DNA of 64,000 nt from Candidatus Schekmanbacteria bacterium RIFCSPLOWO2_02_FULL_38_14 (GCA_001790855.1 MGDH01000018.1:14207-78206); one strand, 5' to 3'; positions 12,428 through 48,659 are shown, numbered from the stretch's first letter. The notes: a model not told the origin generated them from the sequence alone. Translations and numbers: made by a program.

Positions 12428-12440
12428 TGCTCTCCCTCTT

Positions 12441-12478: not shown

Positions 12479-12522
12479 TATGTTTATATTCTTACTCTTA
12501 AATAATTGTTTTTCAACAATCA

Positions 12523-12759: not shown

Positions 12760-12935
12760 TTTTTTCCTCCTGTGTAAGGTTTTTTAATAAGTAATTAATG
12801 AAATTTGTTTTGATTATAATTATTATCAAAAAGTTGTCAAGGATGAAAAAAACATAAAAGCCGCCCTGATAATCAGAACGGCTTTTATGTTTTTATAAAA
12901 ACTCTCTCAGGTGAGAGAGAATGGCCCATAGTGTT

Positions 12936-13172
12936 TTATTGTTTGAGGATTATGAGACGAAAAACATCTCCATTTTGTTCAACTTTTAAAACCTTATGCC
13001 CTTCATCTGTAACTGACCTTGGAACATTTTTGATCGGCTCTCCATCTTTCAGAAAAACCTCTAAAATATCGCCTGCCTGAAGGGATTCAAGCTTAAGCTT
13101 GGTTTTCACAAAGGTCATCGGGCATGTTTCTCTGGTTATATCCAATGTTGCTGTAATGGAATATTCGTTCAT
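12936..13172 (-). CDS. tusA: TusA-like sulfur-carrier protein
   Basis: 78 aa with conserved CPxP motif (ETCPMTFVK) at the expected N-terminal position. Confidence 0.75.
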   Translation of the reverse strand: MNEYSITATLDITRETCPMTFVKTKLKLESLQAGDILEVFLKDGEPIKNVPRSVTDEGHKVLKVEQNGDVFRLIILKQ

Positions 13173-13292
13173 TGCTCTTTAAGATAACCCTCCTTTTCTG
13201 CTTTCCAGATATAATCTCTCTTTAAGTTTGTCAATTAGAATTTATCTGAGGGCTTAAAGGAACTCTACTTTAGAGACTTTTTCAAAGACATA

Positions 13293-14096
13293 TTATCTAA
13301 TCCCACAGAACTGTTCGTAGTCAATCAGCTCTTTTATTGATGGGTTTTCACCACAAATAGGGCAGGCAGGGTCTTTTCTTATCTTTAATTCTCTAAATTC
13401 CATATCCAAAGCATCATACATTAAAAGCCTTCCTGTTAAAGGCTCTCCGATTCCAAGTATGATTTTTATGGCTTCTATTGCCTGTATAATTCCAATTATT
13501 CCGGGAAGTACTCCTAATACCCCTGCTTCCTGGCAGCTTGGGACTGCTCCCGGAGGAGGTGGTTGAGGGTAAAGGCACCTGTAGCAAGGGCCATCAAAGG
13601 GTTTAAAGACTGTTGCCTGCCCTTCAAACCTGAAAATACTGCCGTGCACATTTGTCTTTTTTGCAAATACACAGGCATCATTCACAAGATAACGGGTTGG
13701 AAAGTTATCGCATCCGTCTAAAATCACATCATAGTCTTTAATAATTCCCATTATGTTTTTGGAATCTATTCTCTCTTTATATGTTATTACCTTAACATCG
13801 CTGTTTAGTTTGTTTATTGTTTCTTTTGCAGATTCTACTTTTGGTCTTCCCAAGTCAGTGGTGCTGTGGATTATTTGCCTCTGAAGATTGCTCAACTCAA
13901 CAACATCTCCGTCTATTATACCAATTTTTCCTATTCCTGCAGCTCCAAGATAATATGCTGACGGAGAGCCAAGCCCTCCTGCCCCGATAATCAGAACACT
14001 TGACTCAAGAAGCTTTTTCTGTCCCTTTCCGCCAACTTCAGGCAGGATTATATGACGGCTGTATCTTTCTATCTGTTCTTCAGAAAAATCAAACAT
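13293..14096 (-). CDS. moeB: MoeB/ThiF-family E1-like adenylyltransferase (molybdopterin/thiamine sulfur-carrier activation)
   Basis: GAGGLGSPSAYYLGAAGIGKIGIIDGDVVELSNLQRQ nucleotide-binding motif; C-terminal CxxC...CxxC zinc motif (CYRC ... CPIC). Confidence 0.8.
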   Translation of the reverse strand: MFDFSEEQIERYSRHIILPEVGGKGQKKLLESSVLIIGAGGLGSPSAYYLGAAGIGKIGIIDGDVVELSNLQRQIIHSTTDLGRPKVESAKETINKLNSDVKVITYKERIDSKNIMGIIKDYDVILDGCDNFPTRYLVNDACVFAKKTNVHGSIFRFEGQATVFKPFDGPCYRCLYPQPPPPGAVPSCQEAGVLGVLPGIIGIIQAIEAIKIILGIGEPLTGRLLMYDALDMEFRELKIRKDPACPICGENPSIKELIDYEQFCGIR

Positions 14097-14157
14097 TAAA
14101 AACTTACTCCAATAATTAGTCTATAGACCCACGCAACACAATATTATAAAGTAAAAA

Positions 14158-14206
14158 TCAAATCCCCCCTCGCCCCCCTTTAGCAAAGGGGGGTTGGGGG
14201 GATTTG
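14158..14206. repeat. palindromic element family B (AATCCCCCC-TCG-CCCCCC-TTTAGCAAA-GGGGGG-TTG-GGGGGATT)
   Basis: Perfect hairpin with palindromic loop; identical in sequence (reverse orientation) to the copy embedded in ppx at 15989-16033. Confidence 0.65.
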
Positions 14207-14472
14207 AACATTCAATTTATTTAACCTTTGACTTCTTTAAATTCATAAAAAATTGTTTTTGTCAAGGGCTTTTAACTCAATAAAAAAATAGGTCAAGCAA
14301 AGAAATTGAAAATGTATAGTAAGTGCAATTCCCACAGGTTGCTGCAGGGTTGGCAGGGTTGGCAAACGAATCTATAAAAACTGTTACTTGCATTTTGAGA
14401 TTTTCTGCAGTTTATTGGAGGAGCTTCAATTTATTTGACAATTGGATATTTTTCTGATAGCAAAATCTGAAT

Positions 14473-15528
14473 ATGGAAATGGTAGAAATGATAAAAGTTG
14501 GAATCATCGGAACATCGAGCCTGACATCAGGCGAGATTTTAAAAATTTTAATAAACCATCCAAAAGCAAAGCTTGCCTATCTTGAATCAGAACATTTTAC
14601 CGGGAAAAAGGTCTGGGAAGTCCATAAATTCTTAAAAGGAATTCTGGATTTGACTCTTAAGGCTTTTTCTGAAGAAGAGATTATTGAAAACTGCTCTGTG
14701 GTTTTTATTTCAAAGCAACATGACTATGCCTCAAAGATTTCAAGAAAATTGATTGAAAATGGAGTGAAAGTCATAGACCTTGGCGCTGATTTCAGGCTCA
14801 AGGATTGTAAGGAATATCAGAAATGGTATGGGGTTGACCACAAAGACCACGCTCTTGTTAAAATTGCAATTTACGGACTTCCTGAAATATATGGAAATAA
14901 AATCAAAAAGGCAATGCTTGTTGCAAATCCCGGGTGCTATCCAACAAGCATAATACTTGGCTGCAATCCTTTGGTTAAAAATGAATGGATTGACTTGAAG
15001 GATATAATTGTCAGTTCTTATTCTGGAATTTCAGGCGCAGGAAGGTTTGCAAAACCCGGAATGAATCTTTTTATGGACAACTACCGCAATCTTTTTCCTT
15101 ACAATGTGGCTTCTCACCGCCATACCCCTGAGATTGAACAGGAGCTTTCCGTAATTTCCGGAAGTTCAGTTAATCTGACATTTGTTCCCCATGTTGCACC
15201 TCTTGATAAGGGAATTTTAAGCACAATTTACTTGAAACCTGAAAAAAAATGCTCTGAGGATGAAATCAGGGAACTTTATAATGAAGCCTACAGGAAATGT
15301 CATTTTGTAAGGGTATATGGCAAAGGTGAATACCCTTCAACACTGAATGTGGTTGATACCAATTTCTGCGATATAGGGATAAAATATGACGAGCGCAGTA
15401 ATAGAATTATTGTAATTTCTGCAATTGATAATCTTGTAAAGGGAGCTGCAGGACAGGCTGTTCAGAATATGAATATTATGATGGGTATTGATGAAACAGA
15501 GGGATTGCCTGTTGGCAAAAAAATTTAA
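14473..15528 (+). CDS. argC: N-acetyl-gamma-glutamyl-phosphate reductase
   Basis: VGIIGTSSLTSGEIL N-terminus and catalytic MLVANPGCYPTS motif. Confidence 0.85.
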   Translation: MEMVEMIKVGIIGTSSLTSGEILKILINHPKAKLAYLESEHFTGKKVWEVHKFLKGILDLTLKAFSEEEIIENCSVVFISKQHDYASKISRKLIENGVKVIDLGADFRLKDCKEYQKWYGVDHKDHALVKIAIYGLPEIYGNKIKKAMLVANPGCYPTSIILGCNPLVKNEWIDLKDIIVSSYSGISGAGRFAKPGMNLFMDNYRNLFPYNVASHRHTPEIEQELSVISGSSVNLTFVPHVAPLDKGILSTIYLKPEKKCSEDEIRELYNEAYRKCHFVRVYGKGEYPSTLNVVDTNFCDIGIKYDERSNRIIVISAIDNLVKGAAGQAVQNMNIMMGIDETEGLPVGKKI

Positions 15529-15530
15529 AT

Positions 15531-15668
15531 AATAAGTTCAAATTTCAAAATCCAAAATTCAAAATCAAATAAGAGCTTCAAGTGATTATTTTTTCACTTA
15601 AACCTTTGAATCCCTGACACTCTGAACCCTTTTTTATTTGAACTTTGAGCTTTGGCATTTGACATTTT
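15531..15668. repeat. AT-rich palindromic element family A copy
   Basis: aataagttcaaatttcaaaatccaaaattcaaaatc ... ctttgaatccctgacactctgaaccc ... tttgaactttgagctttggcatttgacatttt. Confidence 0.6.
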
Positions 15669-16611
15669 ATATCATCTCCATCATTACACCATAGCGCAGC
15701 CCTCTTGTGCTCACATGTAGCTCATAGAATTTCAGATAGTTTATTATCTCTTCAAGAATAATAGCTCCAGCAATAATAACATCTGCTCTATCAGGTTCAA
15801 GACCTATTATCTTTTTCCTCTCATCCATGTCCTTTTTCTTCAAAACAGAAATAATTCTTTTTAAATTTTCACTTTTCAATTTCCAATTTTCAATTTTCAA
15901 CCTGTCATATCCTGGGATTTTCAGGTCTATCTGCGCAAGGGTGGTGACTGTTCCTGCAACTCCGATTAGAAGATTATCCTTGTTAGGCAAATCCCCCCAA
16001 CCCCCCTTTGCTAAAGGGGGGCGAGGGGGGATTTGCTTGAGATTATTTTTTATTGCTTCCCTTATATTTCTAACCTCATTTTCTTCTACAGGGTCTGATT
16101 TCAAGAACTTTTCTGTCAGTCTCACTGAGCCGATTTCAAGGCTTTTAGAATATTGAATTTTATCATCTGCTCCAAAAATTATTTCAGTGCTTCCTCCTCC
16201 AATATCTATGATTGTTGTATTAATACCTTTATCTTCTATTCCTGAAACTGCTCCAAGAAAAGAAAGCTCAGCTTCTTTTTTCCCTGATATTACTTCAACT
16301 ATTATATCTGTTTCATTTTTTACAAGATTTAAGAAGGCTGATGAGTTTTCTGCCATTCTTAAAGCGCTTGTTCCCACTACCTTGATATTTTCTGCTCCTG
16401 ATTTTTTGCACTTATCAATATAGTCCTTCAGAACGCTGAGGGTTTTTGTCATCGCTTCGTTTTTTATCAGTTTTGTATCATAAACCCCTTTGCCGATTCT
16501 TGTAACTTTTAAATCTTCGTGGATGGGTTCAATGTGTTTATTTTTATCAATTCTTCCTATTAATAATAAAACTGAGTTTGTTCCTATATCTATTGCACCA
16601 TAAGTTTTCAT
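15667..16611 (-). CDS. ppx: Ppx/GppA-family exopolyphosphatase / guanosine pentaphosphate phosphohydrolase
   Basis: MKTYGAIDIGTNSVLLLIG N-terminus and IGGGSTEII actin-like ATPase motifs; carries an in-frame family-B repeat insertion. Confidence 0.8.
   Translation of the reverse strand: MKTYGAIDIGTNSVLLLIGRIDKNKHIEPIHEDLKVTRIGKGVYDTKLIKNEAMTKTLSVLKDYIDKCKKSGAENIKVVGTSALRMAENSSAFLNLVKNETDIIVEVISGKKEAELSFLGAVSGIEDKGINTTIIDIGGGSTEIIFGADDKIQYSKSLEIGSVRLTEKFLKSDPVEENEVRNIREAIKNNLKQIPPRPPLAKGGWGDLPNKDNLLIGVAGTVTTLAQIDLKIPGYDRLKIENWKLKSENLKRIISVLKKKDMDERKKIIGLEPDRADVIIAGAIILEEIINYLKFYELHVSTRGLRYGVMMEMI
15989..16033. repeat. family-B palindromic element embedded in-frame inside ppx (encodes IPPRPPLAKGGWGDLP)
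   Basis: Reverse-complement translation checked by hand: atc ccc cct cgc ccc cct tta gca aag ggg ggt tgg ggg gat ttg cct gives IPPRPPLAKGGWGDLP inside the Ppx ORF. Confidence 0.7.
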
Positions 16612-16848
16612 AAGGTTACTTCAAAAATTAGTTTAATTATTTTTATTCTTGACTCTTGACTATCTTTTAGCTTGCATATATCAAATATGTTTTAAAAGAT
16701 TAAAGCAAAAAAGGATTTGTAGAAACAGACCTTAAGGTCTGTTGTCAACAGGTCTAAAGACCTGTTTCTACATTTTAAAAAACTTACTACTTACAGCTCA
16801 ATGCTTATAGCTTACAGCCATTAAAAGTCTTAAATCAAGGAGAAGTTT

Positions 16849-17904
16849 ATGAGTGAAGTTTTGAATAATAATAGTTTCATAAGCTCTATTGACAAAAGTA
16901 ACATGTACAGGGAACTGGATAATTTTCCAACAACTCTTTCTGAAAAAGTAGCTCTCTCACTTCCTAAAGAATACTCATCTGTTAAAAATATAATGATTGG
17001 CGGAATGGGTGGTTCAGGAATCTGTGGAGATATAATTCAGTCCCTTTTTCTTGAAAAAGCAGATGTGCCGGTTGAAGTAGTAAAAGACTACACCCTTCCA
17101 AAACATATAGGGCCAGACTCTTTGGTTATAGCAATCAGTTATTCAGGAAACACAGAAGAAACTCTTTCGCTTTATGATGAAGCCCGCAGGAGAAAATCAA
17201 AAATCATTGCTATCTCAAATGGCGGGGAATTAGAAGAAAAGGCAAGAAAAAATAAATGCCCTTTTATGAAAGTCAGGGACAGCCTTATGCCAAGGACAGC
17301 CCTCGGGCACCTTCTCAATCCGCTTTTTAACATAATCCTTAAACTTTTTCCAAAAGCATTACCTTACAAGGATATCCTTGAAGCTGAGAAAATCTTAAAA
17401 AAGCTTCAAGAAAAATATACCCTTTCATCTCTGGTTTCTGGAAACAGGGCAAAGGAGATTGCAAAGAGGGTTGAAGGTAAGAATATAATGATTTTTGGTT
17501 CTGAACAAATAACAAAGCCCGCAGTATTCCGTTTAAAGACTCAATTTAATGAGAATTCAAAACTTTCGGTCTATTATAACTTCTTTCCCGAACTTGGGCA
17601 TAATGAAATTATAGGGCTTGCAGATGACCCTGAGTCAAAAAAGAGTACAATAGTTGTATGTCTGCGTTCTTCTATGGAAAATCCTGAGCTTAAGAAATGT
17701 ATTGATGTAGCTCTGGAAATTATAAAACCAAAGGTTGGAAGCATTATAGAATTATGCGGAGAGGGGAAATCAAAACTGGCTCAGATGCTTTCTCTTATCT
17801 GTCTTGGTGACTGGACAAGCTATTATTTTGCAATTCTCAGAAAAGTTGACCCTACACCAGTGCCGTCAATCAATCAATTCAAGAGAATGAAGAAAGAGAG
17901 ATAA
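16849..17904 (+). CDS. bifunctional phosphoglucose/phosphomannose isomerase (SIS-domain, archaeal-type PGI/PMI)
   Basis: 351 aa; SIS motifs GGMGGSGICGDI and ISYSGNTEET; size and architecture of the PGI/PMI family. Confidence 0.7.
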   Translation: MSEVLNNNSFISSIDKSNMYRELDNFPTTLSEKVALSLPKEYSSVKNIMIGGMGGSGICGDIIQSLFLEKADVPVEVVKDYTLPKHIGPDSLVIAISYSGNTEETLSLYDEARRRKSKIIAISNGGELEEKARKNKCPFMKVRDSLMPRTALGHLLNPLFNIILKLFPKALPYKDILEAEKILKKLQEKYTLSSLVSGNRAKEIAKRVEGKNIMIFGSEQITKPAVFRLKTQFNENSKLSVYYNFFPELGHNEIIGLADDPESKKSTIVVCLRSSMENPELKKCIDVALEIIKPKVGSIIELCGEGKSKLAQMLSLICLGDWTSYYFAILRKVDPTPVPSINQFKRMKKER

Positions 17905-17923
17905 TTGGAAATTGAAAATTTAT

Positions 17924-18364
17924 TTACTTCTTTAATCTTTTGTACTTAATAACATCTCCAGATGGTGTACCGCCGATTGCATCTAAATACTGCATTTTAA
18001 TTCTGTTTTTCCCATTGCTTATAAGTGTTATTCTTACAAAATCACTTGGCGAACCAATTTGAGTGGCTCCTAAAATGGTAATATCAGCAGTTTTTTTGTT
18101 TTCGTTAACAGTTCCTGATGCATTTATTGTGGGAAGATCTACGCCATTATAATTTGTGTCTACTGTTCCTGAAATGTTATTTCCTTCCATTTTCAGAATG
18201 TAAACTATAATAATAGGCACTTGTTGATACTCAATGCTTGCTTCAAATTTTCCTGCAAAAGGTTTTTTTGGTTTGAATTTAAAATTTCCTCCTGCAAAGG
18301 CACTGCTGCAAACCAGAAACATTGGGATAAGAAAGATTAAGATTAGTAAACGCGACTTTTTCAT
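17924..18364 (-). CDS. secreted hypothetical protein (signal peptide)
   Basis: N-terminal signal MKKSRLLILIFLIPMFLVCSSAFAGG; no recognisable domain. Confidence 0.4.
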   Translation of the reverse strand: MKKSRLLILIFLIPMFLVCSSAFAGGNFKFKPKKPFAGKFEASIEYQQVPIIIVYILKMEGNNISGTVDTNYNGVDLPTINASGTVNENKKTADITILGATQIGSPSDFVRITLISNGKNRIKMQYLDAIGGTPSGDVIKYKRLKK

Positions 18365-26316: not shown

Positions 26317-26880
26317 TTGAAGAAGCAGTCATGGAATGAAAAATATAGTGAAGATGAATATGCGTTAGGAATTGAGCCTGCGGAATTTCTTGTTGAGCAT
26401 ATTGGAAGGCTTACAAAAGGAAAAGCACTTGATATTGCAATGGGCGAGGGGAGGAATGCAGTTTATTTAACAAAGAAGGGTTATGAGGTAGACGGTGTTG
26501 AATTTTCAGAGGAGGGGATAAAAAAGGCATTAGCCCTTGCCCAAAAAAACAATGTTACTATCAATGCTATAAGGGCTGACCTTGAAAAACACGAGCATAG
26601 AATAGAAAAAGAGAAATATGATTTAATCTCCTGCTTTTATTATTTGCAGAGAGACTTGTTTCCGGAGATTAAGGAAGGATTAAAAAAAGGAGGGATGGTA
26701 ATCTGCCAGACCTTTACAACAGACAACCTGAAATACCAGCCCCACCCCAAAAACCCTGACCATGTATTGCAGCCAAATGAGCTTTTCAGGTATTTTCTTG
26801 ATTTGAGAATTATTTTTTACAGGGAATGTGTTTTGAATAACGAGACTGCTGTTGCAAGCATTATTGCGCAGAAGATATAG
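26317..26880 (+). CDS. class I SAM-dependent methyltransferase (TehB/TPMT-like)
   Basis: Motif I LDIAMGEGRNAVYL, acidic residue after beta-2 (VDGVEFSE); 187 aa. Confidence 0.6.
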   Translation: MKKQSWNEKYSEDEYALGIEPAEFLVEHIGRLTKGKALDIAMGEGRNAVYLTKKGYEVDGVEFSEEGIKKALALAQKNNVTINAIRADLEKHEHRIEKEKYDLISCFYYLQRDLFPEIKEGLKKGGMVICQTFTTDNLKYQPHPKNPDHVLQPNELFRYFLDLRIIFYRECVLNNETAVASIIAQKI

Positions 26881-31035: not shown

Positions 31036-31248
31036 CCCAAAAGTTATTGAGATATTGTAATTATAAATGATATCAAAATCTTTAATTCAATAACATATTG
31101 ACATATCATTATTATAAATTAAGATTCATATCAGAAATTTATACCTAATTATTATTATTAGAAAATTCTAACTAAAAAAGTAAAAGTAGCTAACAGATAC
31201 TCTCCTTAAATATAGGAAATTTACCTAAAAGTTTAAAACTATCAATAT

Positions 31249-32178
31249 ATGAATCGTAAAATCATTTTATTTATCATCCTGTTTCCATTTATCTTGGGGT
31301 TGATATTCTCCGGGTGTAAAAAAGAGGAAGAAACTTATAAAAAAGTTCGCCTTAATGTTAAAGAAACAGAAGAAAATAGTCCTGCTGCTAAACCTCAAAA
31401 AAAACCGCTTCGTATAGCAATAGCGCCTGTAATCTCGCCAAAAGAAAGTTTTAATGTTTATAGTGACTTAATAGAATATATTTCCAAAAAAGTTGGAAGG
31501 TTGCCGGTTTTTATTCAGGGCAGTAATTACGCTGAGATAAATAATTTAGTCAGATACAGGCATTGTGACGTTGCCTTTGTATGCGATTATGCTTATCTGC
31601 AAGGAAAAAAAGATTTTGGAATGGAAATATTAGTGGTTCCACAAGTGAATGGGAAGGCAAAATATCAATCTTATATTATAGTGCCAGAAAAAAGCACTAT
31701 TAAAAGTTTTTGGGAATTAGAAGGAAAAAGTTTTGCTTTTGCTGACCCTTTATCAAGTTCTGGATATCTGTATCCCAAATACTTACTAAAAAAGAATGGA
31801 AAAACGCCTGAAACTTTTTTCAGCAAGACTATTTTTACATATGGACATGATAATTCCATTGAAGCTGTTTCTCAAGGGCTTGTAGACGGAGCTGCTGTAG
31901 ATAGTTTGGTATACGACTTTATGGTTGCAAATAAAAAGACTTATAGAGTTAATGCAAAGATAGTTCATAAATCTCCTTTCTGGGCTTCACCACCAATAGT
32001 TATTCATCCTGCAATTAATCCTGAAACTCGCTCAATGTTGAAAAATGTTTTCCTCTCAATGCATGAGGATAAGGAAGGTAAATTAATTCTCCGCAGGCTT
32101 ATGATTGACAGATTTGTGGCACAGAAGGATAAAGCATACGATTCAATTAGAAAAATGGCAAACGAGATAGGTTACTAA
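31249..32178 (+). CDS. PhnD/SsuA-like periplasmic substrate-binding lipoprotein (sensor-associated)
   Basis: Lipoprotein signal (ILGLIFSGC); type-2 periplasmic-binding fold resembling phosphonate-binding PhnD; immediately upstream of a sensor kinase, a common arrangement for sensory PBPs. Confidence 0.6.
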   Translation: MNRKIILFIILFPFILGLIFSGCKKEEETYKKVRLNVKETEENSPAAKPQKKPLRIAIAPVISPKESFNVYSDLIEYISKKVGRLPVFIQGSNYAEINNLVRYRHCDVAFVCDYAYLQGKKDFGMEILVVPQVNGKAKYQSYIIVPEKSTIKSFWELEGKSFAFADPLSSSGYLYPKYLLKKNGKTPETFFSKTIFTYGHDNSIEAVSQGLVDGAAVDSLVYDFMVANKKTYRVNAKIVHKSPFWASPPIVIHPAINPETRSMLKNVFLSMHEDKEGKLILRRLMIDRFVAQKDKAYDSIRKMANEIGY

Positions 32179-32185
32179 AACGAAA

Positions 32186-33643
32186 GTGAAAAAAAATATA
32201 CTTTGGCTAAGGGAAAGAGTTCTCTCCGTTAGTATACGTATAAAAGTTATGGGGATTGCTTTAGGGATTGTTTTCCTTTTTGCATTAACCATTATTTTCC
32301 AAATAAGAGAGAGTTTTGAAAAAGAGTTAAGAGAGGAATTGAAAACAAGTGGCATTTTTATTGCTAAAGAAATGACTTCAAGAAGTTCAGGTTTTATCTT
32401 AACTCCCAACCAGTTTGCTCTTAATCTGCTAATAAAAAACATATTTGAAAATAATGAAAATGTAGAGTATGCTTTTATTTTGTCCTCTTCAAATGAAATC
32501 TTAGTCCATTCTTTTGAAAATGGTTTTCCAAAGGAACTCTTGGCAGTTAACAGGGTATCTCCTGGCAGTAAATTCCGTGTAGAGATGTTGGATACTGAAG
32601 AGGGAATTATAACTGACGTAGCTGTTCCTCTCTTTGGAGGAAAACTTGGAACTGTAAGAGTTGGGATGAATGAAAAACATTTGCGGAATAAGCTTAATGC
32701 CATCACTTTACAGATTTTAATCGTTACAGCCATAGTTTCCTTGTTAAGTATTGGCGCAGCCTCTCTCTTAACCATAGTATTAACAAGGCCAATTACTAAT
32801 CTTGTTAGTTTTGTAAATGCACTTGGGAAAGGTGATTTCGAACAGAGAGCGAGAATATGGGCTGATGATGAAATAGGAAAGCTAAGTAATGCTTTTAACG
32901 ATATGATTCAGAAATTGAAAAACTTCAAAACTGAATTAGAATTTAAAGAGGAAATGACGTCACAGCTTTTAAAAAAGGTTATTAATGCCCAGGAAGAAGA
33001 ACGTAAAAGGATTGCCCGGGAATTGCACGACCAAACCAGTCAGTCACTCACATCATTAATGATAGGATTAAAGATATTGAAGTCAGCTAAAACTCTGGAT
33101 GAAGTGACCAAGCGGTCTGATGATTTGCGGGAATTGACATCAAAGACACTGGAAGAAGTCCACGACCTTGCTATCCAATTAAGGCCTACAGTGCTGGATG
33201 ATATAGGACTGGATATTGCTTTACAAAAATATGTTGCAGACTATTCCATGAAATTCAATATAAAAGTGGATTATCATTCCATTGGTTTTGACTCTTTTCG
33301 TCTTCCAACTGAAATAGAGATAGTCATCTATAGAGTTGTTCAGGAAGCACTCGCCAACATTTTAAAACATTCAGAAGCAAGGAATGCGTGCCTGCTTTTG
33401 GAAAACAGAGGTAACTTACTGAAAGTAATCGTTGAAGATAACGGAAAAGGATTTGATGTAAGAAAAGTAATGAGTTCAGAGATTGATGGAAAACTTGGTT
33501 TGTTTGGAATGCAGGAAAGAATTAACTTAATAAGTGGAGATATTACTATTGAATCAACTCCGGGGAATGGAACTAATATATATATTACAGTTCCAATTGA
33601 TAAAAAACTATCATATGAAAAAGATAAAAATACTTTTAGTTGA
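32186..33643 (+). CDS. sensor histidine kinase (2 TM, periplasmic loop, HAMP, HisKA_3, HATPase_c; NarX/LiaS-like)
   Basis: HAMP segment after TM2; H-box RIARELHDQTSQSL; ATPase motifs (NG...GNGTNIY). Confidence 0.8.
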   Translation: MKKNILWLRERVLSVSIRIKVMGIALGIVFLFALTIIFQIRESFEKELREELKTSGIFIAKEMTSRSSGFILTPNQFALNLLIKNIFENNENVEYAFILSSSNEILVHSFENGFPKELLAVNRVSPGSKFRVEMLDTEEGIITDVAVPLFGGKLGTVRVGMNEKHLRNKLNAITLQILIVTAIVSLLSIGAASLLTIVLTRPITNLVSFVNALGKGDFEQRARIWADDEIGKLSNAFNDMIQKLKNFKTELEFKEEMTSQLLKKVINAQEEERKRIARELHDQTSQSLTSLMIGLKILKSAKTLDEVTKRSDDLRELTSKTLEEVHDLAIQLRPTVLDDIGLDIALQKYVADYSMKFNIKVDYHSIGFDSFRLPTEIEIVIYRVVQEALANILKHSEARNACLLLENRGNLLKVIVEDNGKGFDVRKVMSSEIDGKLGLFGMQERINLISGDITIESTPGNGTNIYITVPIDKKLSYEKDKNTFS

Positions 33644-34274
33644 TGACCATGCTGTTCTTCGCTCGGGATTAAAGCTTTTATTAAACGCACAACCAGATAT
33701 GGAAGTTTTAGACGAAGCAACAGATGGGTTGGAAGCAATAAATAAAGCTGTAAAACTCTTTCCAGACATTGTTTTAATGGATATATCTATGCCTGGTATC
33801 GGAGGTCTTGAAGCTGCAAAGCGAATCAAGGCAAAATGCCCTAAAACAAAGATTCTGGTTTTAACCATGCATGATGATGAAAAATATCTGGATGAGTTCC
33901 TGAGACATGGCGCTTCAGGGTATGTTGTAAAAAAGGCTGCAGATACAGAACTTACGGCTGCTATACGCGCTGTTAATAGAGGCGAAATAGCACTACACCC
34001 CGCTGTAACCAAAAAACTTATTAATAATTATCTAAATATTTCCTCGCCTTCCAAAAAGAAAAATGGACAGCATGACCATTTAAGTGAACGGGAGCAGCAG
34101 GTATTAAAACTTATAGTTCTCGGCCATACCAACAAGGAAATATCAGAAGCCCTGTTTATAAGCATAAAAACTGTAGAGACTCACAGAACAAGAATCTTGC
34201 AAAAGCTAAACCTGAACACAAGGGCTCAGCTTGTCCAGTATGCAATGGGAAAAGGTATTTTTAAAAAATCCTGA
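33615..34274 (+). CDS. response regulator, NarL/FixJ family (REC + LuxR-type HTH)
   Basis: MKKIKILLVDDH receiver start (I place the start at the internal Met, 29-nt overlap with the kinase); C-terminal LuxR HTH EISEALFISIKTVETHRTRILQKL. Confidence 0.8.
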   Translation: MKKIKILLVDDHAVLRSGLKLLLNAQPDMEVLDEATDGLEAINKAVKLFPDIVLMDISMPGIGGLEAAKRIKAKCPKTKILVLTMHDDEKYLDEFLRHGASGYVVKKAADTELTAAIRAVNRGEIALHPAVTKKLINNYLNISSPSKKKNGQHDHLSEREQQVLKLIVLGHTNKEISEALFISIKTVETHRTRILQKLNLNTRAQLVQYAMGKGIFKKS

Positions 34275-34445
34275 CAAACTCTTAAAACTTATTCTTTCAA
34301 AAACCAAGCCTGCTTTATCATGTTGTAAGGTTTTCCCCTACACAAAAATCAATGTTTTCCCCGATTGTAAATCTTCTGGTTCTCATATTATAAGTAATAA
34401 ATATGAAATAAAAAATCTCACTTTTCTTTTTATAAGGAATAAATT

Positions 34446-34949
34446 GTGGGGAAAATCCTATCTACTTTCTTTATTCTTGTTTTTATAGCTTCATTATTTT
34501 CATGCTTGAAAAGCTCAGAAGAATTACAACAGCCAATCAATTTTAATCACAAGAAACATATTGAGCAGGGAATTGAATGTGAAACCTGCCACATATACAT
34601 AAAAGAAGAAAGCTTTGCAGGACTTCCAGAGCTTCAAACCTGCCTCGACTGTCATGGGAGTCCTATAACAAAAAGCACTGAAGAGGAGAAGATAAGGAAT
34701 TTTGCAAAAAAGGGAATAAGTTTAGAATGGAAAAGAATATATAGGCTTCCTCAGCATGTATATTTCTCCCATAGAAGGCATGTAGCTTTTGCAAACTTAG
34801 AATGTCAAGTTTGTCATGGCGCAATTGGAGATGCTGTGAAGCCTCCAACAAAGCCTTTAAAGATTTTGATAATGAATGATTGCATAGATTGCCACAAGAG
34901 TTCCAAGAAAAGTAAGATAAGCGCTGATTGTATTGATTGTCATAAATAA
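34446..34949 (+). CDS. pentaheme c-type cytochrome (QrcA/ActA-like small periplasmic cytochrome)
   Basis: Signal peptide; five CxxCH (CETCH, CLDCH, CQVCH, CIDCH, CIDCH) in 167 aa. Confidence 0.8.
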   Translation: MGKILSTFFILVFIASLFSCLKSSEELQQPINFNHKKHIEQGIECETCHIYIKEESFAGLPELQTCLDCHGSPITKSTEEEKIRNFAKKGISLEWKRIYRLPQHVYFSHRRHVAFANLECQVCHGAIGDAVKPPTKPLKILIMNDCIDCHKSSKKSKISADCIDCHK

Positions 34950-34991
34950 AAAGATGATTACACAGATTATTTAGGAAGATTATACAGATTT

Positions 34992-37451
34992 ATGAAGAGA
35001 AGAAGATTTTTAAAGACATTGGGTGGAACATCAGCAGGGGTAGCACTCTCTTCTTGCACCAAGATAGAGAGTTTAAACAAAAAAATTGTAACTATAATTC
35101 CTGCAAAAGAAGAAGTAGTAGTTCCTAAAGGAGTAGAGAAATGGGTGATTTCATCATGTGGGCAATGCTCTGGAGGTTGCGGAATTAAGGTAAGACTTAT
35201 AAATGAAAGAGCTGTAAAAATTGATGGTAATCCACTGCATCCTGTAAACCAGGGAACCCTTTGTCCTAAAGGACAGTCAGGGTTACAGCTCCTTTATAAT
35301 CCAGACAGATTAAAAAGTCCTCTGAAAAGAAAAGGAAATAGGGGAGCAAATCAATGGAAAAAAATTAGCTGGGATGAGGCTGCTAAATTAGTGGTTGAAA
35401 AACTAAAAGAGATTCGAACAAATGGAAAAGCTCACCAACTAACTTTTCTATCAGGCGAATGTGGTGGTCTGATGAAAAGTTTGAGCAAAAGATTTTTAGA
35501 ATCATTCGGCTCCCCAAATTATTTTGATATTTCTGGTTCAATGGATGGTAATGACCAGGGGCCCTCAGACAGTCTTTTTGCAACTCAGGGTATCAGAAAA
35601 AATCCAGTCTATAATCTGGAAAAAACTAAATTAATTCTTTCCTTCGGCTCTAATTTTTTGGAATCTTTTTCATCTCCTGTACAGATTTCCCAGGCATATG
35701 GCTATTTCAGGAGAGAAAGGACAGGCTCAAGAGCCAAACTTATCCAAATAGACTCCAGGCTTTCAGTCACTGGCGCAAAAGCTGACGAATGGATTCCAAC
35801 AAACCCGGGCACATTAGGCGCTCTTGCACTGGGACTCGCTTATATAATTATAAAAGAGGACCTTTATGACAAGGATTTTATAGATGAAGACAGTTTTGGT
35901 TTTGAAGATTTCAAAGATGATAATGGCACATTACATCAAGGTTTTAAAAGAATGGTGCTTGATGAATATACATCCGGTGTAGTCTCCAAAATCACAGGAG
36001 TCTCAACAAATAATATAATAAGGCTTGCCAGAGAATTTGCCACAAATAAACCTGCTATTGCCATAAGTGATAAAATAGGAATATATGATCAGATAGCAAT
36101 TCATTGCCTCAATGCTTTATGCGGGAATATTGATGTTGAAGGAGGGGTTTTAGTACCTAGGGATGTCCCTCTTAAGAGCTTGCCTCCTTTTAAGCTTGAT
36201 GAGATCTCAAAAAAAGGCTTGTCAATGACAAGGGTCGACGGAAGTAACCCGGAGCAATCTTCTGTTTTTTTTAACCCTTTTAAATTTATTATAGAAGCAA
36301 ATGCAACAGGCAATCCCTATAAAATAGATGCCATTTTTATTTACAACTCAAATCCTTTATTTACTTATCCTGATAAAGAAAATTTGAAAAAATTCTTTGC
36401 AGAAATACCTTTCATCTTAAGTTTTTCCTCTTATCTTGATGAAACTTCAGAAATGGCTGATTTAATCTTACCAGATCACACCTATCTGGAAAAATGGGAA
36501 GATGTCCAGACAAACACCCTGAACGGATACCCTGTTTTAGGAATAAGACAACCTGTAGTCAGCAAAATTAATGATACCATGCACACTGGTGACTTTTTAC
36601 TGAAGGTTTCAAAAGAGATAGGGGGTCCGGTGGCGCAGGCTTTACCTTGGAATGATTTTAAAGATTTTCTTTCCTATAGCATTGAAGGAATTTACGAAAA
36701 TCAGAGTGGTAATATATTTGGACCAAAATTTGAAGAAGCATGGGTCCGCCTCCTTGAAAAAGGGGGATGGAGTATTCCTTTGCATTCATCTTTTGAAGAG
36801 TTCTGGAAAAAGGTATTAGAAAAGGGCGGCTGGTGGGATTCGATGTACTATTTTAATGAATGGAGCAGAATTTTTAATACCTTATCAGGAAAATTTGAAT
36901 TCTATTTTCAAACCCTGAAGAATGAGGTTGATAAAACAAAGGATGAAAGAAGAAAAGAGATATTTAAAATGTTAGGAGGGACTAAAGACAAAGGAAAAGA
37001 GGATAAAATATATATGCCCCATTATGAGGCAAAAGCAGAAACAAATGGAAAGAGTTATCCCTTTTATCTTAACGTCTATAAACTTATGTCGCTTTCAGGT
37101 TTAAATGTAACGAATCAGCCATGGCTTCAAGGAATTCTGGCAGTCAATGTTCCAATTAAATGGAATACATGGGTTGAAATAAATCCAGAAACTGCAAAGA
37201 AAATGGCTATATCTGAAGGAGACTTGGTTGTTGTAGAATCAATAAAAAGGAAAATAATTGTTTATGCTCATTTATATGAAGGTGCAATGCCTGAGGTAGT
37301 AAATATTCCTTTTGGGTTAGGGCATTCAGCAAATGGACGGTGGGCTAAAGATATAGGTAAGAATCCAGTTTCTATCCTGGAAGAATTTTCAGATCCGTTA
37401 ACTGGAAACTTCTTCAAAGATTACACACGGGTAAAAATCTATAAGGCTTAA
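34992..37451 (+). CDS. molybdopterin-oxidoreductase-family subunit, TAT-exported (PsrA/QrcB/ActB1-like)
   Basis: Twin-arginine signal MKRRRFLKTLGG; N-terminal CxxCxxxC...C FeS-0 motif (CGQCSGGCG...CPKG); 819 aa MopB fold. Confidence 0.8.
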   Translation: MKRRRFLKTLGGTSAGVALSSCTKIESLNKKIVTIIPAKEEVVVPKGVEKWVISSCGQCSGGCGIKVRLINERAVKIDGNPLHPVNQGTLCPKGQSGLQLLYNPDRLKSPLKRKGNRGANQWKKISWDEAAKLVVEKLKEIRTNGKAHQLTFLSGECGGLMKSLSKRFLESFGSPNYFDISGSMDGNDQGPSDSLFATQGIRKNPVYNLEKTKLILSFGSNFLESFSSPVQISQAYGYFRRERTGSRAKLIQIDSRLSVTGAKADEWIPTNPGTLGALALGLAYIIIKEDLYDKDFIDEDSFGFEDFKDDNGTLHQGFKRMVLDEYTSGVVSKITGVSTNNIIRLAREFATNKPAIAISDKIGIYDQIAIHCLNALCGNIDVEGGVLVPRDVPLKSLPPFKLDEISKKGLSMTRVDGSNPEQSSVFFNPFKFIIEANATGNPYKIDAIFIYNSNPLFTYPDKENLKKFFAEIPFILSFSSYLDETSEMADLILPDHTYLEKWEDVQTNTLNGYPVLGIRQPVVSKINDTMHTGDFLLKVSKEIGGPVAQALPWNDFKDFLSYSIEGIYENQSGNIFGPKFEEAWVRLLEKGGWSIPLHSSFEEFWKKVLEKGGWWDSMYYFNEWSRIFNTLSGKFEFYFQTLKNEVDKTKDERRKEIFKMLGGTKDKGKEDKIYMPHYEAKAETNGKSYPFYLNVYKLMSLSGLNVTNQPWLQGILAVNVPIKWNTWVEINPETAKKMAISEGDLVVVESIKRKIIVYAHLYEGAMPEVVNIPFGLGHSANGRWAKDIGKNPVSILEEFSDPLTGNFFKDYTRVKIYKA

Positions 37452-37465
37452 TCAAGAGGTATTTT

Positions 37466-38152
37466 ATGGCAAAATGGGGAATGGTTATAGATTTGGATAA
37501 ATGTACAGCCTGTCAAGCCTGCGTAGTTGCATGCCAGGCTGAAAACAACATTCCTATAGCAGGACCAAAAGAGACCCAGATGGGTAGGGCAATCCACTGG
37601 ATAGAACTAATATCTCATATAGAGGGGGAGTATCCTAACACCAAAATCAAGCTTATACCCAGACCCTGTTTCCATTGCGATGAACCCCCATGTATCAAGG
37701 TTTGTCCTGTAAGGGCTACTTATAAAAGCGAGGAAGAGGGAATAGTTGGACAGATATTCCCCAGGTGTATAGGCTGTCGTTACTGTACCACAGCATGTCC
37801 TTATACGGTACGGTATTTTAACTGGGAAAAACCCGAATGGCCGGAAATGATGAAAAACCTTCTTAATCCTGATGTATCAGTGAGGCCAAAAGGTGTTGTT
37901 GAGAAATGCAGTTTCTGCTATCACAGGCTGGTAAAGGCAAGAGAAAAAGCAAAAGCAGAAGGAAGAGATTTCTCTCCTGATGAATATATACCAGCATGTG
38001 TCCAAACATGTCCAAGCAAGGCAATGTATTTTGGTGATTTAAGCAATCCCAACAGTAAAGTCTCAATTCTGGCAAGAACCAACAGAGCTTTCAGAATTCT
38101 GGAAGATTTGGGAACAGAACCAAAGGTTATTTATCTCTCGGAAGGGGAATAG
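37466..38152 (+). CDS. 4Fe-4S ferredoxin-type electron-transfer subunit (PsrB/NrfC/QrcC-like)
   Basis: Four Cys clusters (CTACQACVVAC, CFHCDEPPCIKVCP, CIGCRYCTTACP, CSFC...C). Confidence 0.85.
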   Translation: MAKWGMVIDLDKCTACQACVVACQAENNIPIAGPKETQMGRAIHWIELISHIEGEYPNTKIKLIPRPCFHCDEPPCIKVCPVRATYKSEEEGIVGQIFPRCIGCRYCTTACPYTVRYFNWEKPEWPEMMKNLLNPDVSVRPKGVVEKCSFCYHRLVKAREKAKAEGRDFSPDEYIPACVQTCPSKAMYFGDLSNPNSKVSILARTNRAFRILEDLGTEPKVIYLSEGE

Positions 38153-38153
38153 G

Positions 38154-39488
38154 ATGGAGTTAAAGAACGCTAAAGTAAAAGATGAAGATCATATCCTCTT
38201 AGATCCAATCCTCAAAATAGGAAAGGGTTTTTATCTGACGGTAGTTATATTAGGGTCCTTTGTCCTGTTAGCAATTTATGCCTATATTACTCAATTCCAG
38301 AAAGGACTGGGGGTAACCGGATTAAATAGACCAACCTTCTGGGGAGTTTATATTACTAATTTTGTATTTTTCATAGGAATAAGCCATGCCGGCACTTTAA
38401 TATCAGCTATCCTGAGAATTGCTCAGGCTGAATGGAGAAGAGCAATTACAAGGTCTGCAGAAGTAATAACTGTTCTTGTTCTTTTCTTTGGAGTTGGGAA
38501 TATTCTGATTGATTTAGGAAGACCTGATAGGCTTTTTAATATGCTACTGTACGGCAGGTTTCAGTCACCACTCCTGTGGGATTTTGTTAGCATTTCAACC
38601 TATCTAACAGCAAGTACAATATACCTTTATCTTCCTTTAATTCCGGATATAGCCATTTTAAGAGATACTTCCGGCAAAAGAAAATGGCTATATAGTGTAT
38701 TAGCTTTAGGCTGGAAAGGAACAGAAAAGCAGCATCAAATTTTAGAAAAAGCCATAGCCATAATGGCAATATTAGTAATACCTATAGCAATTTCAGTTCA
38801 TACAGTGGTCTCTTTTGTTTTTGCAATGACAATTCAACCTATGTGGCATAGCGCAATTTTTGGCCCTTATTTTGTAGCAGGGGCGATATTTTCAGGTATT
38901 GCTGCTCTTATCATCGCCATGGCAATTATTAGAAAAGTTTATAAACTTGATAATTATCTGAAGGATATACATTTCAATAATCTGAGTCTCCTTTTGCTGG
39001 TAATGAGCTGTCTCTGGTTCTATTTTACATTCTGTGAATATATAACTGTCTTTTACGGCAGTGAACCAGTTCATTTAGCTGTCTTGTACTCTAAATTCAG
39101 CGGTGAATATGCCCTATATTTCTGGACTATGGTCGCAACCTGTTTTGTAATACCATTTTCTATCCTGTCAAACAGCAAGACCAGAACAATTACAGGTAGT
39201 GTAATAGCATCAATATCTGTAACCATTGGTATGTGGCTTGAACGTTTTACAATAGTTGTTCCAACCCTTGTTAATCCCAGACTCCCCTATGAGCGAGGCA
39301 TTTATCACCCAACATGGGTTGAGGCAGCTATAACAGCAGGCTCTCTCTCATTGTTCATTCTTCTATATATGATATTTACTAAGTTTTTCCCTATTGTATC
39401 TATCTGGGAAATAAAAGAGGGGAGAGAAAAAGGTGTAGCTGAGGTACAGGAGAGGATTAAAACTTACCTCCCTGGGTCTGAGACTTGA
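38154..39488 (+). CDS. NrfD/PsrC-family quinone-interacting integral membrane subunit (QrcD/ActC-like)
   Basis: 444 aa, ~10 TM helices; start overlaps upstream stop (translational coupling). Confidence 0.8.
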   Translation: MELKNAKVKDEDHILLDPILKIGKGFYLTVVILGSFVLLAIYAYITQFQKGLGVTGLNRPTFWGVYITNFVFFIGISHAGTLISAILRIAQAEWRRAITRSAEVITVLVLFFGVGNILIDLGRPDRLFNMLLYGRFQSPLLWDFVSISTYLTASTIYLYLPLIPDIAILRDTSGKRKWLYSVLALGWKGTEKQHQILEKAIAIMAILVIPIAISVHTVVSFVFAMTIQPMWHSAIFGPYFVAGAIFSGIAALIIAMAIIRKVYKLDNYLKDIHFNNLSLLLLVMSCLWFYFTFCEYITVFYGSEPVHLAVLYSKFSGEYALYFWTMVATCFVIPFSILSNSKTRTITGSVIASISVTIGMWLERFTIVVPTLVNPRLPYERGIYHPTWVEAAITAGSLSLFILLYMIFTKFFPIVSIWEIKEGREKGVAEVQERIKTYLPGSET

Positions 39489-39501
39489 AAAATATAAGGA
39501 G

Positions 39502-40731
39502 ATGTTTCAAATGGGATTTTTGAAATTAGTCTTTAGAAAATGGCGAATGAACTACAAGGTGTTCTTTTTAATATTAATCATATTTTCTTTTCTGCCATTA
39601 AATATTCATTCTGAGAAGAATACTAATCTTTTCCCTGAAAACCCTCTGGAAGGCTCGAAGATATTTGTGATTAAAGGTTGTGTAAAGTGTCATGCCATTA
39701 AGGGAGAGGGAGGAAATATAGGGGCAGATCTAGGCAAAGTCACCTTTAAAGATACATTGCTTGATATGGCAGGAATTATGTGGAACCATTTTCCGTTTAT
39801 GAGTGAAAAAATGGAGGAGGAGAAGATTGACTGGCCAAAGTTTTTAAGTGGGGAAATGGCAAGTCTAATAGGCTACCTTTATTATATAAATTATTTTGAT
39901 GAGCCAGGCAATACTAAAAAGGGAGAAAATTTATTTTCAGTAAAAGGGTGCGCGCAATGCCATGGCATAGAAAAAAAAGGTGGCAAACCAGGACCAAGTT
40001 TAAGTAAGTTTAAACGTGACTACTCACCAATCTTCATGGCACAAGCTATGTGGAATCATGGTTCTGAAATGGAGGCATCCATGAAGAAATTAGGGATTAA
40101 GAGACCTCAGTTTAATGATAAAGAGATGGCTGACCTATCTGCTTATATTAGAAAAGAAGCAAGAGGGGAAAAGAAGGGATATGGTTTTATGTTGCCTGGA
40201 AATCCAAAAGAGGGGAAACAACTTTTTAACAAAAAAGGATGCATACACTGTCATGCCATTTCAAATGAAGGTGGAAACATAGGGCCAGACCTTGGCAAAA
40301 AGGCAGAAGAGCTGCACAGGAGTCTAAATGAAGTAGCAGGCATTATGTGGAATCACTGGCCTAATATGTATAGAAAAATGATAGAGATGAGAATAGAGGT
40401 TCCAAGTTTTTCAGATAAAGAGATGGCAGACATAATAGCATATCTCTATTTTCTTGGATACTTTGATGAAAAAGGAGATATGAAAAAGGGGTCTATAATT
40501 TTCAATGAGAAGGGGTGTATTAAATGTCATTTTTTTGATGGAAAACAAATGATAGGGCCTGATTTGAGAAAATTATCTAATACTACTTCTTCCATAGAAG
40601 TTGTTACAGAGATGTGGAACCATGCCTCAAAGATGAAAAATAAAATGGCAGAGCTTAAAATCCAATGGCCCAAATTCAAAAAAGGCGAGGTAGCAGACCT
40701 TATGCAATATCTCAGGTCTTTAAAAAAATAA
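39502..40731 (+). CDS. tetra-domain c-type cytochrome (four class-I monoheme repeats, each with CxxCH...GG...MWNH)
   Basis: CVKCH, CAQCH, CIHCH, CIKCH each followed by GEGG/KGG and an MWNH motif ~25 residues later; N-terminal membrane anchor or signal. Confidence 0.75.
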   Translation: MFQMGFLKLVFRKWRMNYKVFFLILIIFSFLPLNIHSEKNTNLFPENPLEGSKIFVIKGCVKCHAIKGEGGNIGADLGKVTFKDTLLDMAGIMWNHFPFMSEKMEEEKIDWPKFLSGEMASLIGYLYYINYFDEPGNTKKGENLFSVKGCAQCHGIEKKGGKPGPSLSKFKRDYSPIFMAQAMWNHGSEMEASMKKLGIKRPQFNDKEMADLSAYIRKEARGEKKGYGFMLPGNPKEGKQLFNKKGCIHCHAISNEGGNIGPDLGKKAEELHRSLNEVAGIMWNHWPNMYRKMIEMRIEVPSFSDKEMADIIAYLYFLGYFDEKGDMKKGSIIFNEKGCIKCHFFDGKQMIGPDLRKLSNTTSSIEVVTEMWNHASKMKNKMAELKIQWPKFKKGEVADLMQYLRSLKK

Positions 40732-48508: not shown

Positions 48509-48659
48509 GTCATTGCGAGCGACTCCCTCGATATTGCTCGGGACAGGCTCCGGGAGCGTGGCAATCTCAAATCCCCCTATATCCCCCTTTTCCCTGCCTG
48601 CCGGTAGGCAAGTAAAGGGGGAGAAAAGAGGGATTGCTTTGGATTCGCCTCGCAATGAC
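48509..48659. repeat. nested palindromic element ~150 nt: family D termini, then GCAATCTC/GAGGGATTGC, then family B C-runs, then family C core
   Basis: gtcattgcgagcgactccc...gtggcaatctcaaatccccctatatcccccttttccctgcctgccggtaggcaagtaaagggggagaaaagagggattgctttggattcgcctcgcaatgac. Confidence 0.6.

Follow-up and report, generated by a model that had tools for sequence, protein, structure and literature searches.

What do the three genes in front of a cytochrome gene supercluster in Candidatus Schekmanbacteria bacterium RIFCSPLOWO2_02_FULL_38_14 sense, and which genes do they control? The genes lie head to tail on the + strand of a 64,000-nucleotide stretch of this genome (GCA_001790855.1 MGDH01000018.1:14207-78206), referred to below as the window. 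They code for a binding protein (X, 31249-32178, 309 aa), a sensor histidine kinase (S, 32186-33643, 485 aa, GTG start) and a NarL/FixJ-type response regulator (R, 33615-34274, 219 aa, ATG start). The start of S lies 8 nt beyond the end of the X gene, R overlaps S by 29 nt, and a gap of 171 nt (34275-34445) separates R from the first cytochrome gene. An original prediction, made from the sequence alone, had described this region as a PhnD-like binding arm joined to a NarX/NarL pair that likely detects a periplasmic anion, possibly the substrate of a MopB enzyme. Open reading frames and Pfam confirmed all three genes at their positions. As judged from sequence and model, the region is rather a homologue of the three-component systems ArrXSR (also named ArrTSR) and AioXSR, and it is likely, with good though not full confidence, that it activates the adjacent cytochrome/quinone operon via two candidate sites in the gap. 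By our analysis the cue is probably an oxyanion in the environment, of the arsenate/phosphate/arsenite class, and not the substrate of the MopB-like subunit.

A binding protein of the sensor type

Protein X affiliates with the Phosphonate-bd family (Pfam PF12974, E 1e-61). It consists of one N-terminal hydrophobic segment ending in a lipobox-like FSGC, with Cys23 at least 90% conserved in the family, and the binding domain. In a phmmer comparison with all PDB sequences, ArrX of Chrysiogenes arsenatis was the top match (E 6e-58) and AioX of Rhizobium NT-26 was found at E 1e-36, whereas PtxB, HtxB and PhnD reached only E 1e-16 to 1e-12. The structure-based comparison with these three proteins, proposed in the original prediction, placed X in the same way. 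An AlphaFold (AF2) model of X, obtained with 26 family sequences at a predicted local distance difference test score of 87.6, retrieved ArrX first in Foldseek (39% identity, 39-40% overall, template-modelling score 0.89-0.93). AioX showed 30% identity (30-31% overall) with a score of ~0.91, and PtxB, HtxB and PhnD ranked lower with 21-24% identity. Seven pocket residues of AioX (Y88, C106, Y131, S161, S163, H192 and D210) are all kept in ArrX and ArxX, while C106 is missing from PhnD (Badilla et al., PMC5908839). In our alignment X carries the identical residue at all seven positions (Y94, C112, Y139, S169, S171, H200 and D218, respectively), and these are mostly invariant or at least 90% conserved among the 26 family members. 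Since ArrX and AioX are far closer to X than PtxB, HtxB and PhnD by both sequence and fold, X is, on these two lines of comparison, the ligand-binding arm of a sensor within the ArrX/AioX subfamily and not a transport protein. The role as ligand-binding arm is the one that had been proposed originally, and it is borne out.

The kinase S contains two transmembrane segments (residues 19-37 and 177-195) followed by HAMP, HisKA_3 and HATPase_c domains (Pfam). The periplasmic domain between the segments has ~140 aa and a weak match to sCache_3_2; precomputed matches to this family are stronger in S orthologues. The earlier assignment as NarX-type holds for the transmitter, as the NCBIfam NarX model covers only residues 271-476 (117 bits against a cutoff of 578), and fails for the periplasmic sensor part, which is not NarX-like; a NarX-type sensor was therefore ruled out. 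Regulator R has a Response_reg (REC) domain and a GerE helix-turn-helix domain (Pfam) and no AAA+ domain. Its best PDB matches are VraR and NarL, and it scored 148 bits with the NarL equivalog, whose cutoff is 250. By sequence, R is a member of the NarL family but not NarL itself. Its recognition helix carries the segment S[IV]KTVETxRxR, which is retained across 44 distant homologues.

The trio is kept in other genomes. Five orthologous loci, of which four are available as DNA (L001-L004) and one as a gene listing without DNA (the ENA contig of P0007), retain X-S-R with X 75-80% identical. Three of them run on from X-S-R into cytochrome and MopB-like genes: L003 and the ENA contig continue through the iron-sulfur, NrfD and cytochrome c genes, and the sequence of L002 stops inside the iron-sulfur gene. 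In L001 the cytochrome gene downstream of R is a more distant one, and the sequence of L004 stops inside R. The genes upstream of X differ among the orthologous loci. More distant relatives came from a scan of a genome collection, which yielded 80 loci with X 41-54% identical (neighbours identified by tblastn with the window proteins) in Chloroflexota, Bacillota, Methylomirabilota, Nitrospirota, Zixibacteria, Omnitrophota, Thermodesulfobacteriota and Methanoperedens archaea. In 67 of the 68 loci with enough sequence, no more than 400 nt separate the end of X from the start of an S homologue, and the homology extends to the N-terminal sensor part. A GerE-type R follows the kinase in 44 of 61 loci, and 43 of 49 loci contain a gene for a MopB, iron-sulfur or NrfD protein. 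In loci of Methanoperedens, Nitrospirota and Omnitrophota the regulator type is altered and X is still paired with the sensor part of S, a persistence in keeping with X working via the kinase's periplasmic domain. 

Several of these loci show particular arrangements. L061 (Candidatus Methanoperedens nitroreducens ANME-2d) has two X-S modules (2086-8659 and 10001-17832), one after an ArrA-like MopB (LRGRY, SHSAICAES) and the other before a MopB-FeS-NrfD cluster of the HSSICAD type, and in L078 (Chloroflexi) two complete XSR modules are arranged in tandem. In L009, L011-L013, L016, L017, L021, L026, L031, L035 and others, among them many Chloroflexota and Zixibacteria, the kinase matches S in two pieces ~500 nt apart, which suggests from the sequence an extra domain inserted between the HAMP and HisKA_3 regions. 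The closest relative in the genome collection is L034 (X 54% identical). Its XSR lies between a divergent Cys-less cluster resembling Qrc and alternative complex III (ACIII) (5928-8468, - strand) and a Cys-containing MopB-FeS-NrfD cluster (13808-18333, + strand).

The exact sequence of X is on deposit from metagenome-assembled genomes of Candidatus Schekmanbacteria (GWA2_38_9 and others), annotated as hypothetical or as phosphonate ABC-transporter (substrate-binding) protein; it should read ArrX/AioX-family sensor. With more than 2,600 X homologues at E ≤1e-5, the family extends far beyond the small number of arsenic systems investigated, and its X-S-R proteins are candidate parts for oxyanion biosensors.

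Candidate operators in the gap downstream of R

The gap contains the repeat pair seen in the original prediction. GTTTTCCCC occurs exactly twice in the window when both strands are searched (34330-34338 and 34354-34362), with a spacing of 24 nt from start to start and 15 nt in between, not of ~22 nt as first given. As a bare repeat the pair is not significant, and its count was dropped as an argument; the case for the two copies comes from conservation and from family-wide enrichment. The first copy lies within operator candidate 1 (34325-34341, + strand), GTAAGGT-TTT-CCCCTAC, an imperfect 7-3-7 dyad, and the second within operator candidate 2 (34349-34364, + strand), TCAATGTTTTCCCCGA. Both hold the candidate operator core TTTTCCCC. 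Judged by its sequence, site 1 fits the description of an imperfect 7-3-7 inverted repeat better than that of a direct-repeat copy. Its arms pair without mismatch in L003 (GTAAGGG-TTT-CCCTTAC) and L002 (GTAAGGT-TTT-ACCTTAC), the innermost base of both arms changing together between the two, and with two mismatches in the window. In a four-way alignment, the block from CTGTAAGGnTTTnCCnTACA to AAAAATCAnTGTTTnnCCnGATTG with both copies is the most conserved part of the gap, and site 2 is conserved in L001-L003. Site 2 in the window and its counterpart in L001, TCAGTGTTTTCCCCGA, are identical at 12 and 13 of 16 bases, respectively, to tcaggtttttccctga, the proposed FixJ-like ArrR site upstream of arrA in Chrysiogenes arsenatis (Badilla et al., PMC5908839).

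Enrichment was determined in 29 distant loci in which a gene of complex iron-sulfur molybdoenzyme (CISM) type starts no more than 650 nt from the R stop. The top k-mer in the R-to-CISM gaps was TTTTCC (20 loci against 3.5 expected), along with TTTCCC (18 against 3.2), TTTTCCC (12 against 1.1) and TTTCCCCG (8 against 0.4). The pattern TTT[TC]CC[CT] is present on the coding strand downstream of R in 20 of the 29 loci with 40 instances. In 200 dinucleotide shuffles it turned up in 3.6 loci on average and in no more than 9, and an equal length of sequence upstream of X had it in only 3 of the 29 loci (3 instances). Instances form dyads in distant loci such as L081 (TGTCAGGTTTTCCCTGACA), L084 (GTGTCGGGGTTTTCCCGACAC), L073 (GCCTAAGGATTTTCCCTTAGGC) and L027 (CCATCGGGACTTTTCCCGATGG), and are often arranged in tandem 24 or 33 nt apart (L028, L075, L021 and L012). 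A position weight matrix (PWM) made from the distant loci only ranked site 2 tenth and site 1 twelfth among ~128,000 positions of the window. The proposal that the repeats are regulator sites gains from these comparisons: as cores of dyad-like operators, the GTTTTCCCC copies are good candidates. The core, approximately GGnTTTTCCC inside a dyad, recurs downstream of R across phyla. This recurrence backs the one putative ArrR site that has been published, from Chrysiogenes, extends it to the wider family and offers a handle for regulon prediction.

A search for further sites of this type, as had been suggested, was run in the window with the exact 9-mer, one mismatch, two dyad patterns and the family PWM, and gave no additional convincing intergenic site. 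Autoregulation of X-S-R was rejected, as the window has no operator-like site upstream of X and only 3 of the 29 distant loci show one there. PWM matches at 4528, 48583 and 55944 are part of an unrelated intergenic repeat (~4500-4600, ~48550-48650 and ~55900-56010, with a related hairpin near 54697). This repeat, aatccccct.tatCCCCCTTTTCCCTGCCTGCCGG[TC]AGGCAAGTAA.gggggagaaaagag.gattgc, has a GC-rich hairpin and looks like a repetitive extragenic palindrome (REP) or a miniature inverted-repeat transposable element, and fits the operator PWM by chance via CTTTTCCCTGC. The second-best PWM match in the window, TAGGATTTTCCCCAC (34446-34460, - strand), is an inverted near-copy of the operator core over the GTG codon with which the cytochrome gene starts. 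Its absence from L001-L003 led us to read it as a probable chance occurrence in coding sequence. An RNA element in the gap was likewise considered and dropped, as no Rfam family matches the region.

Two possible promoters were located. The X-S-R operon is preceded by a candidate sigma-70-type promoter (31098-31125, + strand; TTGACA, 16-nt spacer, TAAGAT), which is a pattern match only, at 10 of 12 positions in a consensus scan. In the gap, a possible weak core promoter (34365-34391, + strand) was recognised by eye, with TTGTAA (34365-34370) and TATTAT (34386-34391) separated by 15 nt. Were it used, site 2 would be centred at approximately -41.5 and site 1 at approximately -65.

The adjacent operon, the signal and competing explanations

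The presumed target comprises five genes (34446-40731), all on the + strand. The first (34446-34949) codes for a membrane-anchored pentahaem cytochrome c similar to QrcA/ActA, with five CXXCH motifs, one N-terminal transmembrane segment and a Pfam Cytochrome_C7 match. It is followed by a MopB-like subunit (34992-37451) with a twin-arginine translocation signal and an FS0 cysteine motif and without the Cys/His loop that ligates molybdenum, and by a QrcC-like four-cluster iron-sulfur subunit (37466-38152; NCBIfam QrcC 316 bits with a cutoff of 400, DsrO 182 bits). The fourth protein is a quinone-interacting membrane subunit of the NrfD family (38154-39488; Pfam NrfD, E 8e-35; NCBIfam DsrP 132 bits, QrcD 41 bits). 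The last is a cytochrome c with four class-I domains (39502-40731), the probable end of the operon; such a gene also follows NrfD in L003, L085, L086, L087 and L088. The best NCBIfam matches of the subunits were QrcA, QrcB and QrcC, and DsrP for the NrfD subunit, each with a score under the curated cutoff. None of the Qrc equivalog cutoffs was passed (QrcA 104/180 bits, QrcB 310/440, QrcC 316/400, QrcD 41/570). By its sequence, the operon looks like a cytochrome c:quinone oxidoreductase module of the Qrc/ACIII type.

The MopB-like subunit has ArrA as its best full-length solved relative (E 4e-73), then PsrA/PhsA (1e-43), with ActB of ACIII distant; it scored 295 bits with the ArrA equivalog, whose cutoff is 1600. 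In the alignment, ArrA residues R165, Y166, H189 and K198 and the molybdenum ligand C193 are all replaced; RGRY has become SGEC, and HSSVCAEAHK has become ISG-SMDGNDQ. A canonical identity as ArrA, PsrA or TtrA was ruled out by these active-site residues. A database search placed the subunit in a large family of ~50% identity in Thermodesulfobacteriota, Acidobacteria, Nitrospinota and others, in which the FS0 cysteines C56, C59, C63 and C91 are invariant and no Cys, Ser or Asp is conserved in the hypervariable loop that comes after GSPNY. Among MopB homologues, QrcB and ActB are without cofactors (PMC6303296), and QrcB carries no redox cofactor of any kind (PMC13059093). The subunit is considered Qrc/ACIII-like; because FS0 is kept, a strict QrcB identity was not accepted. 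No named family was found whose cutoff is passed by these widespread proteins (34992-37451 and the homologues P0134-P0247). Members of this family always occur in an operon of cytochrome c7-like, MopB, FeS, NrfD and four-domain cytochrome c genes.

Sampling of 80 loci, which span at least eight phyla and include Methanoperedens archaea, shows the XSR module paired with at least five different MopB active-site classes. The other XSR-linked MopBs keep the Cys ligand and show motifs of at least four distinct classes: those of true ArrA (L023 and L047, with ArrA-like motifs in L061 of Methanoperedens), HSSICAD, HSNLCD, and HTTICEQS with variants. The ArrA signature motifs in L023 and L047 tie the X family to true arr clusters, and only the window clade has lost the molybdenum-ligand Cys among XSR-linked MopBs. 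Conversely, the recurrent operon of cytochrome c7-like, MopB, FeS, NrfD and two four-domain cytochrome c genes occurs without XSR in L085 and L088. Genes further on are partly shared, namely a c554-like cytochrome in L086 and L087 and a GltD-like protein with a cytochrome b in L085. Operons with other or no regulators in relatives imply that sensor module and target were combined independently; the pairing of XSR with the Qrc-like operon is lineage-specific.

As the subunit has neither the canonical molybdenum ligand nor the substrate loop, the idea that its substrate is the signal found no support. The claim that the module switches on the whole supercluster was overstated in the same prediction. 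The candidate sites do precede the five-gene operon. Beyond it come a gap of 389 nt after 40731, further cytochromes, a GltD-like flavoprotein, a Rieske/cytochrome b pair, an MtrC-like protein of 929 aa and a protein with an EB_dh domain. This gap, together with the absence of operator-like sites from the later gaps, points to the five-gene operon as the direct target. The window contains no ars genes; the sole oxyanion-related gene noticed outside the X-S-R module is a TehB-like S-adenosylmethionine methyltransferase of the tellurite-resistance family (26317-26880), ~4.4 kb upstream of X. A ligand assignment from the X tree was abandoned, as the tree follows taxonomy and not enzyme class, with ArrA-linked X scattered; the same pattern was reported by Badilla et al. 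(PMC5908839).

In the mechanism that we propose, X would be tethered at the membrane's outer face by its lipid anchor and a disordered linker, and its pocket, identified by alignment, would bind a small periplasmic oxyanion. Liganded X would dock on the ~140-aa periplasmic domain of S, as the near-obligate gene pairing suggests. S would then autophosphorylate on the HisKA_3 histidine and pass the phosphate to R, and dimers of R would bind the two dyad-like operators, whose GTTTTCCCC cores have centres 24 bp apart. The weak promoter just downstream would thereby be activated and with it the five-gene operon. Several observations weigh against this account. AioX binds arsenite and ArrX arsenate (phosphate weakly) with the same pocket residues (PMC5908839), so these residues do not predict the ligand. 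When the gap is shuffled by dinucleotides, 11% of the shuffles contain a direct repeat of at least 9 nt within 40 nt, as do 6% of real 171-nt tiles of the window. The operator core is missing in some family loci, e.g. L034 (in neither gap flanking XSR), L017, L029, L041 and L042. A consensus scan of the gap found no consensus promoter, which makes the placement at -41.5 and -65 a guess, and the stretch from R to the cytochrome gene showed no terminator, so that read-through from the X-S-R promoter could contribute. Lastly, the Qrc-like operon in L086 and L087 is controlled by unrelated sigma-54 two-component systems; HAMP or PAS HisKA kinases and sigma-54 (NtrC-type) regulators precede it there (L086 3388-6385, L087 1673-5065). 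L087 derives from the same metagenome sample as L001.

Among the competing explanations, the one that would take X out of signalling altogether is that it is an ordinary binding protein for ABC transport of phosphonate, phosphite or phosphate, with permease and ATPase encoded elsewhere and the two-component neighbour incidental. The public annotation says as much, the cutoff of the broad TIGR01098 subfamily is passed (137.5 against 112 bits), and the window covers only 64 kb of the genome. X nevertheless stays below the cutoff of the PhnD equivalog TIGR03431 (142.7 against 261.1 bits), is far closer to ArrX and AioX by sequence and fold, and has the AioX-specific Cys that PhnD lacks. A grouping with ABC-transport binding proteins, named at the outset as the outcome that would speak against a sensor, was not observed. 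No ABC ATPase or permease gene occurs in the window, an ABC-ATPase-like open reading frame lies within 10 kb in 5 of the 80 homologous loci and adjacent in none, and the kinase is next to X almost without exception. The transport explanation is very improbable and already largely refuted. More credible, although still improbable, is that S senses the signal directly and X is dispensable or modulatory: many Cache domains are themselves receptors for small ligands, and S shows weak sCache_3_2 similarity in its periplasmic domain, more so in orthologues. Against it, 67 of 68 loci pair X with the N-terminal part of S, including loci of Methanoperedens, Nitrospirota and Omnitrophota in which transmitter and regulator types change.

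The doubts about the gap lead to the possibility that the module is real and the GTTTTCCCC copies are due to chance or belong to another element, R acting at other promoters. NarL-family sites are usually heptamer pairs, and the frequency of 9-mer repeats in shuffles, similar cores in the unrelated REP-like repeat and family loci without the core all leave room for it. Set against this are the conservation of the block in orthologues with dyad-preserving changes, the strong, strand-biased enrichment specific to the R-to-CISM gaps of distant loci, the resemblance to an independently proposed Chrysiogenes ArrR site and the lack of an Rfam match, which together make the explanation unlikely. Concerning the target, the module could be a true arsenic sensor and the Cys-less MopB still a catalytic molybdoenzyme for arsenic or a related oxyanion, its molybdenum bound without a protein ligand; AioA has no amino-acid ligand to molybdenum. 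X is 40% identical to the arsenate-binding ArrX with the same pocket, ArrA is the best full-length solved relative of the MopB, and the FS0 cysteines are invariant, whereas true QrcB is cofactor-free (PMC13059093). The replaced ArrA residues, the hypervariable loop devoid of a conserved candidate ligand, the best matches of three of the four subunits to Qrc models, the wide occurrence of the operon with unrelated regulators and the lack of ars genes in the window render this catalytic role quite improbable.

A further, tentative and rather unlikely scenario is one in which an ArrX-type sensor was rewired in this lineage from an oxyanion reductase to a Qrc/ACIII-like module that is non-catalytic, or catalytic in an unconventional way, and that feeds the neighbouring multihaem cytochromes. 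In one version, a dissolved oxyanion (e.g. arsenate or phosphate set free from metal oxides) may be a proxy signal for the electron-transfer chain; in the other, the Cys-less, FS0-containing MopB family may be a new ligand-free molybdoenzyme like AioA that acts on the sensed oxyanion.

Comparison with known three-component systems

The ArrXSR-type module favoured here is of a kind already known as ArrXSR (ArrTSR) and related to AioXSR and ArxXSR, a relationship missed in the original prediction; ArrXSR and AioXSR have been described (PMC5908839, PMC5492636). What is added is cross-phylum support for an ArrR-type operator, and a target without recognisable catalytic site, which cautions against reading the ligand of a sensor from the neighbouring enzyme.

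The closest counterpart is ArrXSR of Chrysiogenes arsenatis and relatives, which senses arsenate and controls arrAB. It shares with the window the gene trio, the X subfamily with identical pocket (39-40% identity and a template-modelling score of ~0.9 to the ArrX crystal structures) and a regulator of the same non-AAA+, FixJ/NarL-like class (ArrR is FixJ/CitB-like, PMC5908839). The candidate operator resembles the published putative ArrR site at 12-13 of 16 bases, and both modules stand upstream of a complex iron-sulfur-molybdoenzyme-type operon. The difference lies in the regulated enzyme, which in the window is not an arsenic molybdoenzyme (ArrA, ArxA or AioA): the MopB has neither the GRY motif nor the HSxxCAEAxK loop of ArrA, and the operon is Qrc/ACIII-like with pentahaem and class-I cytochromes c. 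AioXSR and ArxXSR sense arsenite and control arsenite oxidases. They have the PhnD-fold sensor, kinase and regulator in common with X-S-R, and X is 30-31% identical to AioX with the pocket residues kept, C112 corresponding to Cys106. In contrast, AioR and ArxR are sigma-54-dependent AAA+ regulators of the AtoC type, whereas R is composed of REC and GerE (PMC5908839), and the AioX signalling loop (residues 53-61) is shorter in X, as in ArrX.

Precedents for such a module beside members of the molybdoenzyme family other than Arr come from Melioribacter roseus, where an 'ArrTSR' is located upstream of a ttr-like locus induced by arsenate (PMC5492636), and from a Methanoperedens extrachromosomal element, where sreABC has arrRSX-like genes upstream (PMC13444090). 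Both targets keep a MopB of the catalytic type (Methanoperedens-type MopBs in the sampled loci show HSSICAD with the Cys ligand), whereas the window MopB lacks the Cys ligand. The regulated operon itself has the same subunit set and order as QrcABCD and ACIII (multihaem cytochrome c, MopB-like, four-cluster Fe-S and NrfD), with a MopB-like subunit equally devoid of the molybdenum ligand. It differs from Qrc in its scores below the equivalog cutoffs, in the FS0 motif retained where QrcB is cofactor-free, in an NrfD subunit that scores higher with DsrP than with QrcD, and in a host that, as far as the window shows, is no sulfate reducer. A similar logic, in which a free periplasmic binding protein reports its occupancy to a membrane kinase, is known from TorT-TorS-TorR and LuxP-LuxQ, and the Tor system also induces an operon for a cytochrome and a molybdoenzyme. 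The binding-protein folds and lineages of TorT and LuxP are unrelated to that of X (PMC5908839), and their kinase and regulator classes differ too.

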